Shown: in pieces, positions 16,931 through 24,864 of the stretch
How positions within the stretch are numbered: the first letter of the stretch is position 1
Layout: each line of letters begins with the position of its first letter
NCBI RefSeq assembly: GCF_016903815.1
Contig: NZ_CP069973.1
Reading direction: 5' to 3' (one strand)
DNA from: Escherichia coli
GTDB lineage: Bacteria > Pseudomonadota > Gammaproteobacteria > Enterobacterales > Enterobacteriaceae
DNA: 64,000 nt
Position numbers and translations under genes: made by a program
Notes under the pieces: generated by a model
The model's input: only the letters and a program-made list of their open reading frames with translations
Told to the model about the DNA's origin: nothing
Databases searched by the model: none

Positions 16931-17065
16931 TCACATCTTGTTGCTACGTATAGCGACTTCTGCCTGCCAGAGATCCCAGTCGTTGCTGCGTAAAGCCTGC
17001 ACAGCCTGGTTGTAAGTGATACCGCAACAATCCATCAAATACTGAACTACTTCGTAATGCACCAT
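16931..17065 (-). CDS. ydaG: YdaG
   Basis: 44-aa minus-strand ORF MVHYEVVQYLMDCCGITYNQAVQALRSNDWDLWQAEVAIRSNKM. Confidence 0.7.
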   Translation of the reverse strand: MVHYEVVQYLMDCCGITYNQAVQALRSNDWDLWQAEVAIRSNKM

Positions 17066-17236
17066 CTTATCTATCCCCTTAACGCCGGGTGGCGGAACTA
17101 ACTGCTGCACTGCAAAATTTGAATCCCGCCGTCATGTTCATACGCCTCGGGCTGGCTACTTAACCCCTGACCACTGCCTGGTAACTCGAAGTATTGCCCG
17201 GCGTTCTGTGGGGCGGGGTGGGTTGGTAGGTATATA

Positions 17237-17352: not shown

Positions 17353-17772
17353 TTAAGAGGCTTTTTGTTTTTTCTTTCGTGCTAACTCTTCGTAAATTGC
17401 ATTGTACTTCTGTTTTTTCTCCTCAAGAGTTTTTAAAAGTTCATCTGTCTCACTGTCAGGGAGCTCGTCCAGAAGGTCAATGATGATTTTTTGTCTTGGA
17501 TTTAACTCCTGATAGAAACGTATCTGTCCACTTTCTTCTGTATCCTCTCCCAAAAGATAGGTTGGTGTTGTTCCAATGAGTGTTGCTAATTCCCTTAATT
17601 TCTCTCGGCGAGGAATTGTTTCACCATTAAACCATTTGCTAACCGCTTTTGGTGTTAATTTCATTCGACGGGCAATTTCTGCCTGCCTTCCATGTTGTTC
17701 ATAACCAGCGTTTTCACAGGCTAGCGCAAGCCTACTGGCGAACTCTTTACGCGCTTTATCTTCATGAACCAT
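17353..17772 (-). CDS. prophage repressor, XRE-family HTH (RacR position)
   Basis: 139-aa ORF with an N-terminal HTH (RQAEIARRMKLTPKAVSKWFNGETIP) and an acidic/coiled C-terminus. It is divergent from the cro-like ydaS and lacks an S24 peptidase domain. Confidence 0.8.
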   Translation of the reverse strand: MVHEDKARKEFASRLALACENAGYEQHGRQAEIARRMKLTPKAVSKWFNGETIPRREKLRELATLIGTTPTYLLGEDTEESGQIRFYQELNPRQKIIIDLLDELPDSETDELLKTLEEKKQKYNAIYEELARKKKQKAS

Positions 17773-18602: not shown

Positions 18603-19391
18603 ATGGCTTCAAACTGGATAAAGCTCGAAGTTATTACGCCGGATAAGCCGGAAATATTCAGGCTTGCTGAGATTCTGAATATTGATCCAGATGCCGCATT
18701 AGGGAAAGTCATTCGCTTCTGGGCATGGGCGGATCAACAAATGATAGACGGTAACGCAGAGTGTAACGCTCGCGGCGTTACAAAAAGTGCAATAGATCGC
18801 ATCACTTTTATGGCTGGTTTTGCTGATGCGTTAATTCAGGTTGGATGGCTGGTCGAAACTAATGGTGTGTTGTCGCTTCCTAACTTTGAGCGCCATAACG
18901 GGAAAAGCTCTAAAAAACGGGCGGTTACAAACGAGAGAGTAACAAAAATACGAGAACTGAAACGAAAAGGTAACGCTGCCAGCGTTACAAAAACGGATCA
19001 AAAAGCGTTACCAGAGGAAGAGAAAGAGGAAGATATAAATACTTATCTCCCCCTAAATCCCCCTCGCCAAAAACGAGCGTCTAAAAAATTCGAACCGGAG
19101 GCTATCGAGCTGCCTGACTGGTTGCCGGAAACACTCTGGCATGAGTGGGTTCAGTTCAGGCAGGCATTGCGAAAACCGATTCGAACGGAGCAGGGCGCTA
19201 ACGGGGCGATACGGGAGCTGGAAAAATTCCGCCAGCAGGGTTTTTCACCTGAGCAGGTGATTCGACACAGCATCGCCAACGAATACCAGGGCTTGTTCGC
19301 GCCGAAAGGTGTTCGACCTGAGACGTTACTCCGACAGGTTAACACCGTCTCGTTACCGGATAGTGCGATCCCGCCAGGCTTCAGGGGGTAA
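18603..19391 (+). CDS. ydaU: replication initiation protein YdaU-like (DUF1376 family)
   Basis: 262-aa ORF at the O-protein position, immediately upstream of the DnaC-like loader. Confidence 0.75.
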   Translation: MASNWIKLEVITPDKPEIFRLAEILNIDPDAALGKVIRFWAWADQQMIDGNAECNARGVTKSAIDRITFMAGFADALIQVGWLVETNGVLSLPNFERHNGKSSKKRAVTNERVTKIRELKRKGNAASVTKTDQKALPEEEKEEDINTYLPLNPPRQKRASKKFEPEAIELPDWLPETLWHEWVQFRQALRKPIRTEQGANGAIRELEKFRQQGFSPEQVIRHSIANEYQGLFAPKGVRPETLLRQVNTVSLPDSAIPPGFRG

Positions 19392-19397
19392 CTGACC

Positions 19398-20144
19398 ATG
19401 AAAAATATTGCGACAGGCGACGTTCTTGAACGTATCCGCAGACTGGCCCCGTCACATGTAACCGCGCCATTCAAGACGGTAGCGGAGTGGCGCGAGTGGC
19501 AACTTTCCGAAGGCCAGAAACGTTGTGAGGAGATCAACCGTCAGAATCGTCAGTTGCGGGTGGAAAAAATTCTGAATCACTCTGGCATCCAGCCATTGCA
19601 CCGCAAATGCTCGTTTTCGAATTACCAGGTGCAGAACGAAGGGCAGCGATACGCGTTGAGTCAGGCGAAATCCATCGCTGATGAACTGATGACCGGGTGT
19701 ACAAATTTTGCGTTCAGCGGAAAACCTGGTACCGGGAAGAACCACTTAGCGGCAGCTATCGGGAATCGCCTGCTGAAAGACGGTCAGACAGTGATTGTGG
19801 TTACCGTGGCTGATGTTATGAGTGCCCTGCACGCCAGCTATGACGACGGGCAGTCAGGCGAAAAATTTTTGCGGGAACTGTGCGAAGTGGATCTGCTGGT
19901 TCTTGATGAAATTGGCATTCAGCGCGAGACGAAAAACGAGCAGGTGGTACTGCACCAGATTGTTGATCGCCGGACAGCGTCGATGCGCAGCGTGGGGATG
20001 CTGACAAACCTGAACTATGAGGCCATGAAAACATTGCTTGGCGAGCGGATTATGGATCGCATGACCATGAACGGCGGGCGATGGGTGAATTTCAACTGGG
20101 AGAGCTGGCGTCCGAATGTCGTCCAGCCAGGAATTGCGAAGTAA
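19398..20144 (+). CDS. ydaV: DnaC/IstB-like helicase loader YdaV
   Basis: 248-aa ORF with Walker [12 protein letters not shown] and Walker B LLVLDEIG. Confidence 0.85.
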
Positions 20145-21527: not shown

Positions 21528-22031
21528 ATGACTGAATTAACCAAAAAGCAATTAATCGAAGAAGCTAAATTAAAAATAGCGATTGAGAAATGCCACCCCA
21601 ATTCAGGGATGGCACGGGTAGAGGGCGAATTATTCAAAATTGCTCTGGCATCGCTGGAAGCAGAGCCAGTTGGTGATTTTTATGAATACAAACCGGATGA
21701 CTGGTATCAGCGTTCGGCTGGAGATAAAGCGCCAAAATGGACGCCACCCTATGCCGTTTTTCCAGCGCCCGTAGTGCCGGAAGAAATGGATTTGCTTACA
21801 TGCCATCTCGATGGTGTAACTGAAACATATGCTGAGGGATGGAACGCTTGCCGCGCTGCCCTGCTTCAGGGCAAAGGGGAGCCCGGGAAACAAGTTCGCG
21901 AATTGACAATGCTGGTTAAACAATTGGTTAGTCAACTGAAGAAACCGAAACCGGGCTGCAAATTGCCGGATAAAGTGATGGACTACCTGGAGCGAAGCGG
22001 ACTTATAAGCGTGGAGGATGTTTTACGATGA
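21528..22031 (+). CDS. hypothetical phage protein (nin-region)
   Basis: 167-aa ORF with a GGAGG-type SD region upstream. No family recognised. Confidence 0.55.
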   Translation: MTELTKKQLIEEAKLKIAIEKCHPNSGMARVEGELFKIALASLEAEPVGDFYEYKPDDWYQRSAGDKAPKWTPPYAVFPAPVVPEEMDLLTCHLDGVTETYAEGWNACRAALLQGKGEPGKQVRELTMLVKQLVSQLKKPKPGCKLPDKVMDYLERSGLISVEDVLR

Positions 22032-22111
22032 CCTGGCCTGAAGCATTCACAACGGTAGGAATTGCGATGGCGGTGGCGCTGGTGGTGTATTCGATTTGCC
22101 GCTGGGGTTGA
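22028..22111 (+). CDS. possible 27-aa single-TM peptide
   Basis: ATGA overlap with the upstream stop. Product is MTWPEAFTTVGIAMAVALVVYSICRWG. Confidence 0.3.
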   Translation: MTWPEAFTTVGIAMAVALVVYSICRWG

Positions 22112-22151
22112 TAATACTAAATAACCAGCCCTTATGGGGCTGGCTAATCAT

Positions 22152-22925
22152 TTAGAACTGTTCATTGCCATCGAGGTTAGGTAGCATAATTTTTTCAATC
22201 AAGGCGAGAGCCTTTTTGTCCCGGTCAGCGAAGTATTTCGGGGCATATTGCGGCAACCAAATATTGTTAAAATGTTCTTTGAAATCTGCTAAATATTCAT
22301 TTGGGTACAGCCTTGCAGGGTATACGCGACCATCGGGATATTCATGGTCATAGGTAGGGAATGTTTTGGGTTCTACGTTTCTATTATCTCTTAACCATTG
22401 TGAAAATACTCTTCCTTGTGAAATGTCAGGAACCATTTTTTCTGGGAGTGTGTACCCTGCTTGTTCAAGAGGTGCAACCAAGTTGAATGTCAGTTCATTA
22501 AGAATAGAAAAGTGCGTGTGAGGAATTCTACTACGATTAACCATGTACCGTTTTAAATGTACAGGCATTTCTGCTGTAGTTCTTTCCCCTGACATCCATT
22601 CACGAACCCATCTTGAAACCTGGACTGCAAATTTGGGCGATAGCCACTGCGCTAGATTAATAGCGATGTCAGGATGCACCCATGTCCCTTGGTTTTCAGG
22701 TCTTCCACCTTTAAATGATTGAATTAACTCCGATATGGGAATTCCCATATCGCGTGATAATTCGTCAAAAAACTCTTGAGTAGTTTTGAGTCTAGTGTAA
22801 TCAGAGAGCAGTTTGCCCGCAGTTCTACACATTGATGTGGCGTTTATGTAACCATCTTTGGCACGTAAATGTATTATTTCGCCGTCAATTTCACGAGAAA
22901 TCAAAGATAATTGAAAGGATGTCAT
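22152..22925 (-). CDS. KilA-N domain protein with an uncharacterised C-terminal domain
   Basis: 257-aa ORF. The N-terminus (IHLRAKDGYINATSMCRTAGKLLSDYTRLKTTQEFF...GTWVHPDIAINLAQW) resembles the KilA-N DNA-binding fold. SD GAGGA is upstream, and the gene opposes the flanking early-right genes. Confidence 0.75.
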   Translation of the reverse strand: MTSFQLSLISREIDGEIIHLRAKDGYINATSMCRTAGKLLSDYTRLKTTQEFFDELSRDMGIPISELIQSFKGGRPENQGTWVHPDIAINLAQWLSPKFAVQVSRWVREWMSGERTTAEMPVHLKRYMVNRSRIPHTHFSILNELTFNLVAPLEQAGYTLPEKMVPDISQGRVFSQWLRDNRNVEPKTFPTYDHEYPDGRVYPARLYPNEYLADFKEHFNNIWLPQYAPKYFADRDKKALALIEKIMLPNLDGNEQF

Positions 22926-23334
22926 TGAAAATTCCTCAAGTTGGAGAGTTCTGGAACATTAAGGCGAGGTGGCAGTAATGCACCATCTGTAATCTTTTGA
23001 TACTGACGTAATCGGGCCTGATGTGCAACGCCTTGCAAGTATGTAACTCATTGAAAACGATCATTTTTATCTATTGACATCAAATGGCAAACTGTCATTG
23101 TGCGGCTATGGCAAGTGGCAAATGCTTATAAATCATATGGATATAAATAGTACAGAAAGAGTTGTTTTCTCTAGGATATGAGTATACGCCCAATGCTGAT
23201 TGGTTGAATTTTGTTCTTGTTTTAAAGGGTAAGAGTTTAAAGTGTTGGCAGTGATGTATTGGATAGTTAGAATTGCTGTGGGTGCTTGAGGCTATCTGCC
23301 TCGGGCATGAACACCAAAGGTAGATAGAGAAAAG

Positions 23335-23402
23335 CCCCAGTTAACATTACGCGTCCTGCAAGACGTTTAACATTAATCTGAGGCCATATCTATGCGACAC
23401 AT
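23335..23402 (-). ncRNA. putative Sok-like antisense RNA
   Basis: The minus strand carries TTGACC, an 18-nt spacer and TAATCT opposite the mok/hok leader, by analogy to R1 hok/sok. The ends are approximate. Confidence 0.3.
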
Positions 23403-23447
23403 AGAGATTAGCCTCTTACGGACCGAAAGGTCAAGGAGAAGCAGGCT

Positions 23448-23573
23448 ATGAAGCAGCAAAAGGCGATGTTAATCGCCCTGATCGTCATCTGTTTAACCGT
23501 CATAGTGACGGCACTGGTAACGAGGAAAGACCTCTGCGAGGTACGAATCCGAACTGGCAGACGGAGGCTCTGA
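23448..23573 (+). pseudogene. hok-family (HokD/RelF-like) type I toxin gene, frameshifted and 3'-diverged
   Basis: The first 37 aa (MKQQKAMLIALIVICLTVIVTALVTRKDLCEVRIRTG) match recalled HokD. GGCAGACGGAGG appears where GGCCAGACGGAGG is expected, so a 1-nt loss gives ...RRRL stop at 41 aa. Upstream hok-type leader elements are present (GCTTGAGGCTATCTGCCTC, TAGCCTCTTAC, CAAGGAGAAG). Confidence 0.7.
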
Positions 23574-23655
23574 TTCGTAGACTACTAATCTGAGTAAAAG
23601 ACCCAGCGGGGAAAGAACCACGCCGGGACTAGTTAATAAGATATTTATAGCGTGG

Positions 23656-23997
23656 CTATTCTTTTTTTGCGGTATAGACTTTTTCGCCTGAGAAGTCTGG
23701 AGCTACCCAAAAGTTAATATTAAACTGAGCATCATCGCTTAGTTCAACACGGTGCCAGTATTGTGGTGGGCTTGTTGCAAAAGCGCCAGCATTAATGACT
23801 ACTTTTATCTCCGGTTCAGTAGCATTCTCATCAGCAAAACCATAATATGTTACAGTACCTTCCATCACGCATAACTGTCCAAAAACACCTGCTGCTGTAT
23901 TATGATGTGTTAATAACGCTGAAGGTACGTTCTCTTTTGTGAAGAACGGAGTTGAGCGTTTGATTACCCAGTCTTTAGGAATTCTCTTGTGTGTCAT
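23656..23997 (-). CDS. DUF1971 (YeaR / TehB-N-terminal-like) cupin-type protein
   Basis: 113 aa from MTHKRIPKDWVIKRSTPFFTKENVPSALLTHHNTAAGVFGQLCVMEGTVTYYGF...PPQYWHRVE...FNINFW, colinear with recalled YeaR. SD GGAGGTGG is upstream. Confidence 0.7.
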   Translation of the reverse strand: MTHKRIPKDWVIKRSTPFFTKENVPSALLTHHNTAAGVFGQLCVMEGTVTYYGFADENATEPEIKVVINAGAFATSPPQYWHRVELSDDAQFNINFWVAPDFSGEKVYTAKKE

Positions 23998-24364
23998 AAC
24001 CACCTCCCATAAAACATGCATTATAAATGCACCTTTTTGAGGGTTATGTCAAGCTGTTATGAAACACATAATTGATATGTTGATTAGAGGAGAAGATAGA
24101 ATCAATATGGTTGTTTTTCGTATAACTATTTGTTTTACTTTTAGTTTGTGCATTCTGTGTGTTAGGAATAACTTATTAAAGTTTAACTAAAAAATCTCGA
24201 TATAGTCCGCATAGATTACTGTTACTGAATCTTATTGTGTGCATTAGTTGTGTTCTGAAATTTCAATTTAATTACTTATGATATATTTTTAACGATAAAT
24301 GTTTTCCGGGTTAAAGACAGTGGGGGATGAGATAAGCAATATATCATTAATCTTGATTATTTCC

Positions 24365-24430
24365 AGGATGCCTTTACTGTGCATATAAATAAATCATATA
24401 CGCATCAAATAATGTAAAGGCATCCTTTTA
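24365..24430 (+). terminator. long hairpin plus T-run (13-bp perfect stem AGGATGCCTTTAC / GTAAAGGCATCCT)
   Basis: Stems at 24365-24377 and 24414-24426, followed by TTTTA. The T-run is only on the plus strand, so the hairpin faces the 3' end of the minus-strand peptide gene. Confidence 0.4.
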
Positions 24431-24499
24431 GATATATCTTATCAAATGTTAATGATTTGAGTGGGAAACATGATTCCAGAAACTAATCATGCGGCTACT

Positions 24500-24586
24500 T
24501 TATAAAAATAATGCCCATATAAAACAGCCAGCGAAAAGGATTACGGATAAAAAAGGAGCGAGATGTGCATAGTTGTTATTTTCCAT
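24500..24586 (-). CDS. possible 28-aa hydrophobic peptide
   Basis: Product is MENNNYAHLAPFLSVILFAGCFIWALFL, with SD AAGGTGG 6 nt upstream of the ATG. It lies in an AT-rich intergenic island. Confidence 0.4.
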   Translation of the reverse strand: MENNNYAHLAPFLSVILFAGCFIWALFL

Positions 24587-24864
24587 GTTTAACCACCTTA
24601 AATAATTGATGATGACGGGATGTGCATCTGTAATGCTTTTGTTGAAATGTTATGATAAAAAAGAACTTTTTCATAACATTAAAATGTAATTTATCTAATC
24701 GTTTTTAATAATAAGTGTTGTATTTCTATCCTTGTATCAGCTATTTGATATGTAGTGTTTGTTCATGTTATGTGGAGCTTTACACCATAGCCAGTTTATT
24801 TATACTTTATTCGTCAGCCTGAACAACTGGCATCTGCTGCACTGCGCCATCGAGAGATTGAGAA

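Follow-up and report, generated by a model that had tools for sequence, protein, structure and literature searches.

The window, that is, the whole 64,000-nucleotide stretch of Escherichia coli DNA analysed here, matches a Rac-like lambdoid prophage adjoining ttcA, in which intR, xisR, ralR, recET, kilR, sieB, a RacR-like repressor, ydaS/T-like genes and the replication genes are followed by the region of a bstA-like gene and then by Q, the lysis genes, trkG and the head and tail genes. The plus strand carries an O-like gene (18603–19391), a DnaC-like gene (19398–20144) and then DUF1627, DUF977 and DUF551-like genes up to position 22031; the bstA-like gene lies antisense to these replication and nin genes of the early-right operon, as an open reading frame at 22152–22925 on the minus strand that begins with ATG and encodes 257 aa (RefSeq WP_000200358.1, 'KilA-N domain-containing protein'). 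The repressor gene, at about 17353–17772 on the minus strand, is 4.4 kb away from it, with plus-strand genes and the replication genes in between. An earlier note on this DNA had described a reverse-oriented gene with a KilA-N domain, opposed to the early-right operon and furnished with its own Shine-Dalgarno sequence, and all of these elements are found, as are the C-terminal peptides quoted there. Direct reading of the sequence places GAGGA at 22933–22937 on the minus strand, the GAGG of this ribosome-binding site (22934–22937) being 8 nt ahead of the ATG. At the other end of the gene, the terminator scan recovers an intrinsic-terminator-like, GC-rich hairpin with a T-run that starts 5 nt past the stop codon (22146 to 22122, minus strand; a 10-bp stem with six GC pairs, then TTTAGTATTA); it sits between two convergent genes and is placed to end transcription of the bstA-like gene. 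The coding sequence is supported by the ORF call, by its match to PHROG 6287, by its KilA-N and BstA_C domains and by its substitution pattern; in a comparison with the PhiR5_2 phage allele, to which it is 86% identical, dS is at saturation and dN amounts to 0.094, and the resulting dN/dS of about 0.03 shows strong purifying selection. This ratio, together with the 2652 homologues recovered in the homology search, indicates that the reading frame is not a chance ORF.

The protein consists of two domains. Its N-terminal part is a KilA-N (APSES-type) DNA-binding domain at residues 14–112 (22590–22886, minus strand), matched by Pfam PF04383 with an E-value of 4.3e-27, and PHROG 129, 'transcriptional regulator', covers residues 13–118. 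The C-terminal part, approximately residues 119–250 (22176–22571, minus strand), is matched by the PADLOC BstA model at residues 119–238 (E 3.2e-21) and by BstA of phage BTP1 in BLASTP at residues 125–251 (32% identity over 142 columns, E 3e-16), whereas PHROG 6287, 'BstA abortive infection system, replication inhibitor', extends over residues 1–254 (E 2.7e-89); BTP1 BstA (st313-td) matches this same PHROG at 2.1e-150. Precomputed annotation of the 100%-identical cluster representative (P0001) and of all close homologues gives PF04383 KilA-N and PF26567 BstA_C together; the direct Pfam scan gives KilA-N alone because the Pfam copy scanned here is older than the PF26567 model, and NCBIfam gives no match to the protein. 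An AlphaFold model of the whole protein has high confidence (pLDDT 92), and nothing in a set of viral structures matches below an E-value of 0.1, antirepressor C-domains included. From these matches, and from the profile comparisons given below, the C-terminal half can be assigned to BstA_C, so that the roughly 140 aa left unassigned by the earlier note now have a family, and the gene appears as a relative of the known BstA abortive-infection proteins, with a defence role assigned by homology. Few KilA-N-type families have been characterised, and with BstA_C as its C-domain this KilA-N fusion falls into one of them.

According to Owen et al. 2021 (PMC8585504), BstA is a prophage-encoded abortive-infection protein that keeps an invading phage from replicating its DNA; it colocalises with phage DNA, and the carrier prophage is spared via a cognate DNA element, aba (PMC8585504). 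Three BstA proteins have been tested, those of BTP1, Klebsiella (BstA-Kp) and E. coli NCTC10963 (BstA-Ec), and the N-domain of the BTP1 protein was named 'KilA-N(-like)' from HHpred (PMC8585504). The window protein resembles these three in its BstA_C C-domain, in a two-domain plan with a DNA-binding-type N-domain, in being the product of a single prophage-borne gene and in belonging to PHROG 6287, and close alleles of its gene fill the same slot between cI and N. Its N-terminal KilA-N domain and its C-terminal PF26567 domain are accompanied by prophage carriage, but the gene is not placed directly downstream of the repressor, a position common among family members though not found in all of them. 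Further differences concern length, approximately 300 aa in the tested proteins and 257 aa here, that is, about 50 aa less; the N-domain, which is a canonical Pfam KilA-N in the window protein whereas that of the BTP1 type matches no Pfam KilA-N model; the position, in the nin region behind a private upstream region of 342 bp rather than after the repressor as for BTP1 bstA; and the CCCGCC-type terminal repeats, which the BTP1 aba has and which are absent around the start codon of the window gene.

The extent of the kinship was resolved by comparing an alignment of the window-protein subfamily (A1, 61 sequences) with one of BTP1-type proteins (A2, 45 sequences). Whole proteins align in hhalign with 97.9% probability and an E-value of 5.4e-13, seemingly end-to-end; C-domain against C-domain gives 98.5% and 3.3e-15, whereas homology of N-domain against N-domain is undetectable (0.1%, E 0.44). 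N-domain homology between the two BstA subfamilies was accordingly dropped, the signal coming, after the domain split, from the C-domain only. In that domain, R126, N130, E144, D167, S169 and H194 of the window protein are invariant across the two subfamilies. Pfam KilA-N is absent from all 45 BTP1-type proteins even at E ≤ 1, and these proteins bear PF26567 without any other Pfam domain. Because only the C-domains are homologous to the BTP1 type, the window protein is best described, as far as sequence allows, as a sister architecture in which a true KilA-N domain is joined to BstA_C. Owen et al. mention a small group of homologues that match the C-terminal region alone (PMC8585504), and the KilA-N plus BstA_C proteins probably correspond to that group.

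The gene is part of an inserted module of about 1.16 kb (22109–23265), made up of the terminator, the bstA-like coding sequence and the private upstream region, and both junctions are set by E. coli MY1-8, in which the same left flank, ending in CGCTGGGG, is joined straight to the hok/sok promoter, which begins with TAGAATTGC. On the left, the junction falls exactly on the stop codon of a small hydrophobic ORF of 27 aa (22028–22111, plus strand; MTWPEAFTTVGIAMAVALVVYSICRWG), which is conserved in MY1-8 and shares an ATGA overlap with the stop of the DUF551-like gene; on the right, it lies just before the −10 box of hok. Whereas the flanks have a GC content of about 0.51, the module has 0.38–0.43 and the stretch at 23.9–24.9 kb has 0.29–0.33, and a whole block of 1.3 kb travels as a unit in 116 of 5426 complete E. 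coli genomes. With its own terminator, a promoter-like site, low GC and discrete junctions, the module has a moron-like anatomy.

Outside the module, on the plus strand, follows a hok/sok type I toxin-antitoxin locus (23268–23611; homology block, query 1869–2212), recognised by an Rfam sok match at 23280–23450 with 101.5 bits, and in its hok gene (23448–23573, plus strand) one nucleotide present in the intact hokD of MY1-8 is missing, so that the shifted frame codes for 41 aa and differs at the C-terminus. The bstA module includes, at 23245–23250, the −35 box (TTGGCA) of the hok promoter. Next comes a DUF1971 gene (23656–23997, minus strand), and between it and the DUF1367 gene an AT-rich stretch of about 840 bp (approximately 24022–24864, GC 0.29–0.33) contains several promoter-like sites, with no supported ORF and no Rfam match. 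The frameshifted hok and the DUF1971 gene had been listed in the earlier note, which regarded the interval as a cargo island lying between the replication/nin genes and the YbcO/Q module; the low GC content, the discrete insertion and its junctions in MY1-8 support the reading of this region, bounded by the replication genes on one side and by DUF1367/YbcO/Q on the other, as a low-GC accessory island.

The 342 bp upstream of the gene (22926–23267) are part of the insertion and are followed by the hok/sok leader. No ORF with homology support occurs in them, in agreement with the non-coding stretch noted before, and similar sequence is absent from the fetched homologous loci and phage records except for those of the same prophage. 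The only minus-strand promoter-like site within this region is a candidate sigma-70 promoter, TTGCCA-16-AAAAAT (23090 to 23063), which agrees with the consensus at 9 of 12 positions; promoter-like sites as a whole are not enriched across the region in the consensus scan. Overlapping the candidate promoter is a cluster of short direct repeats of two families, D1 and D2 (23081–23148), in which TTTGCCA(T/C)TTG occurs twice, 31 bp apart, beside two tandem 15-mers, and which may be considered a candidate for regulator binding or for an aba-type element. The aba of BTP1 measures 63 bp, 29 bp upstream of the gene and 34 bp of coding sequence, and its terminal CCCGCC repeats are essential; it is allele-specific, functions as DNA and was defined functionally (PMC8585504). 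Its positional equivalent here would be 22892–22954 on the minus strand, a purely positional candidate, in which flanking direct repeats reach at most 4 nt and no BTP1-style pair spans the start codon. Among 80 homologous loci, start-spanning repeats occur in 25%, versus 30% of control windows, and are thus not enriched, in a test of low power for which the 6-mer repeat of BTP1 is itself statistically unremarkable.

In the same upstream region, the 14-mer AGATGGTGCATTAC, which includes ATG GTG CAT TAC, is found at 22974–22987, 49–63 bp upstream of the bstA start, and again at 17054–17067, at the start of a 44-aa ORF downstream of the prophage repressor. Its identity is borderline relative to shuffled controls (score 28; control mean 18.9, maximum 30), and the 14-mer shared by both sites could be a recombination scar or due to chance.

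The bstA-like gene occurs in 136 of 5426 complete E. coli genomes (about 2%), at 99% identity or more in 115 of the 136 records, with the ORF intact and 100% identical among the matches listed. An identical gene is found in the same place in the records vB_EcoS-673R7 and vB_EcoS-666R9, and an identical upstream region in vB_EcoS-613R10, all three being intact prophages predicted by PHASTER and not isolated virions; related prophages without the module also exist, in a comparison that includes MY1-8. In BTP1 and many homologues, bstA stands after the repressor and is presumably expressed from the same promoter (PMC8585504), and it is there that the closest divergent alleles of the window gene are located. 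The PhiR5_2 allele lies between cI and N, that of a metagenomic lambdoid prophage (L083, 78% identical) directly after an S24 repressor, and a second E. coli allele, with 77% nucleotide identity and present in 20 genomes, directly after a LexA-family cI, its homology to the window starting exactly at the start codon. Overall, the canonical slot after the repressor is held by alleles 77–86% identical in the loci L083, L090 and L092; it is evident from these alignments that the coding cassette has changed its surroundings and gained a new upstream region. The second E. coli allele, that of strain 1008S19 (L090, 7001–7754), is annotated as a KilA-N protein of 113 aa and is probably truncated; the prophage that carries it also has an IS1 insertion.

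More distant relatives extend far beyond enterobacterial prophages. A homologue in a Rhizobium integrative element is located downstream of a Prim-Pol gene, some 1.4 kb away; in Vibrio (L087–L088), homologues occupy an apparent integron cassette array and have reverse-transcriptase and HEPN genes nearby; and proteins with KilA-N and BstA_C at 52–60% identity occur in genomes and MAGs of many phyla (L003–L082), namely Verrucomicrobiota, Planctomycetota, Bacteroidota, Nitrospirota, Armatimonadota, Myxococcota, Gracilibacteria and Peribacteria. Such identity across phyla is unusually high for a defence gene. Several of these multi-phylum homologues stand beside apparent IS1- or IS1595-type transposases, as judged by eye; the survey of neighbouring ORFs, which covered 80 loci, is qualitative only, and GC-rich contigs give spurious ORFs in it. 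An exhaustive search with the C-domain recovered BstA_C at E ≤ 0.001 in 415 of 1.84 billion cluster representatives, most of them 240–290 aa long with BstA_C at the C-terminus. Atypical members (P0265, P0303, P0268 and P0359 among them) have BstA_C behind Bro-N, Rha, ORF6N or KilA-N, the Rha-BstA_C member bearing in addition a DUF559 nuclease-like tail, and BstA_C also ends one primase/helicase-type protein of 1230 aa with the order PriCT_2-DUF3987-KilA-N. Two further proteins, of 1656 and 1770 aa, have an internal BstA_C and no Pfam matches at E ≤ 0.001. Because it is found behind Bro-N, Rha, ORF6N, KilA-N and a primase/helicase-type protein, BstA_C is a portable module of the Bro/KilA/Rha shuffling network, and the fact that it is now and then associated with replication proteins agrees with the phenotype in the literature, a block of phage DNA replication.

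Taken together, these data point to a BstA-family phage-defence protein, encoded in a self-contained accessory module of the Rac-like nin region, as the probable nature of the gene, an assignment made by homology and held with reasonable, though not high, confidence. By analogy with the work on BTP1, Klebsiella and NCTC10963 (PMC8585504), from which expression, phenotype and aba are all extrapolated, a promoter belonging to the gene would drive its expression in the lysogen without input from the lytic cascade, and, as homology with the three tested proteins suggests, the gene product would stay idle until a heterologous phage infects. It would then move to the replicating phage DNA, with KilA-N as the likely DNA-binding part, and block phage DNA replication, probably via BstA_C, so that the infected cell would yield no progeny; the resident prophage, when induced, would escape, most likely via a cognate aba-type DNA element within the module. 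The alleles 77–86% identical in the canonical repressor-linked BstA slot argue for this defence role. Against it, only the C-domain is shared with the tested proteins, at approximately 32% identity, and the position away from the repressor, the lack of BTP1-like repeats at the start and the weak promoter call (9/12) also weigh on the other side. The likeness to lambda RexAB and other repressor-linked Abi modules lies in these being prophage-expressed accessory defence genes, and bstA takes the place of rexAB in the cI-to-N slot of relatives (discussed in PMC8585504); nevertheless, there is no sequence or mechanistic kinship with RexAB, and the window gene lies outside the immunity region.

A more specific possibility, doubtful but not far-fetched, is that the proteins with KilA-N and BstA_C form a functionally distinct branch, in which BstA_C would be a replication-targeting effector with interchangeable DNA-sensing heads. 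If so, the module would have left the immunity region and its self-immunity would be unlike that of BTP1, possibly with an aba-type site in the upstream repeats or with silencing by convergent early-right transcription, and it would be a universally conserved target in replication that keeps homologues from at least eight phyla at 52–60% identity.

Three other explanations fit the evidence less well than the defence role. The gene may encode a Bro/KilA/Rha/ANT-type protein that acts as an antirepressor or as a transcription regulator, tuning the induction of its own or a co-resident prophage without any role in defence, in agreement with the canonical KilA-N of its N-domain, with the match of PHROG 129 to that same part, with the shuffling of BstA_C among the antirepressor-typical N-domains Bro-N, Rha, ORF6N and KilA-N, and with an ORF6N gene at the corresponding site upstream of hokD in an O157 prophage. 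Nevertheless, Bro/ANT-type antirepressors have Bro-C, ANT or KilA-C as the C-terminal partner, whereas that of the window protein is BstA_C; a Bro-C/ANT assignment, which the earlier note had left as an alternative for this domain, was ruled out, no such Pfam family being matched and the best antirepressor C-domain matches in BFVD, with E ≥ 0.4 and TM ≤ 0.38, being not significant. Moreover, the sole experimentally studied family with the same C-domain is a defence family, abortive infection and not antirepression being the only function for which BstA_C proteins have been tested, and a purely regulatory role is therefore improbable.

A factor of benefit to the phage itself, acting in lytic growth or establishment through modulation of replication or through host killing like P1 KilA, is another possibility: the gene adjoins the replication module, just as the Rhizobium homologue lies downstream of Prim-Pol, BstA_C is fused to a primase/helicase-type protein, and the high identity of homologues across many phyla suggests a conserved cellular or replication target. 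The layout of the gene, antisense to the early-right operon and with its own terminator and upstream region, is instead that of an accessory gene expressed in lysogeny; since related prophages lack the module, it must be dispensable for phage growth, and homologues also reside in the apparent integron cassette array and in non-prophage islands, all of which makes a lytic function rather unlikely. Finally, the gene could be an inert passenger, intact yet unexpressed after the cassette left a repressor-linked promoter. The loss of co-transcription with the repressor, the single and weak promoter candidate, the frameshift in the adjacent hok and the truncated 113-aa annotation of the 1008S19 allele would be expected of such a remnant, but the ORF is intact, it is conserved at 99% identity or more in most of the E. 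coli records, the same module recurs in the three predicted Rac-like prophage records, the ribosome-binding site and the terminator are kept, and the residues invariant in the family are all present, although the invariant columns were defined on this sequence; this explanation is accordingly considered improbable.

The BstA family, its phenotype, the PHROG, the PADLOC model and the Pfam domain were already known, and the gain is in this sense incremental; the variant features here are the canonical KilA-N head and the nin-region location with private upstream DNA. With this assignment, a common type of prophage gains one more gene with a likely role in defence. In a survey of defence systems across the E. 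coli pan-genome, bstA was found only in lambda-like prophages located at one tRNA-Arg hotspot (PMC10121019), and, since bstA was reported there from lambda-like prophages only, the Rac-type copies were probably missed by that survey and by standard defence callers. The mechanism of aba and the mode of action of BstA were left open by Owen et al. (PMC8585504), and a literature search for later work on the BstA mechanism or on the Pfam domain name returned nothing beyond that study and survey papers. The window gene offers a natural test case, a BstA uncoupled from the repressor and with a different N-domain, and such an arrangement could help to locate the aba element and to separate the roles of the two domains.

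The surroundings of hokD vary in other prophages as well. In O157:H7 PV15-279 (L094, 1921–2469), a forward ORF6N-domain gene occupies the corresponding site, just upstream of hokD, and a RelE/ParE pair follows hokD in the same prophage; other prophages have Doc or TehB-type cargo genes around hokD, and in the nin regions of lambdoid prophages cargo genes seem to accumulate preferentially around hokD.
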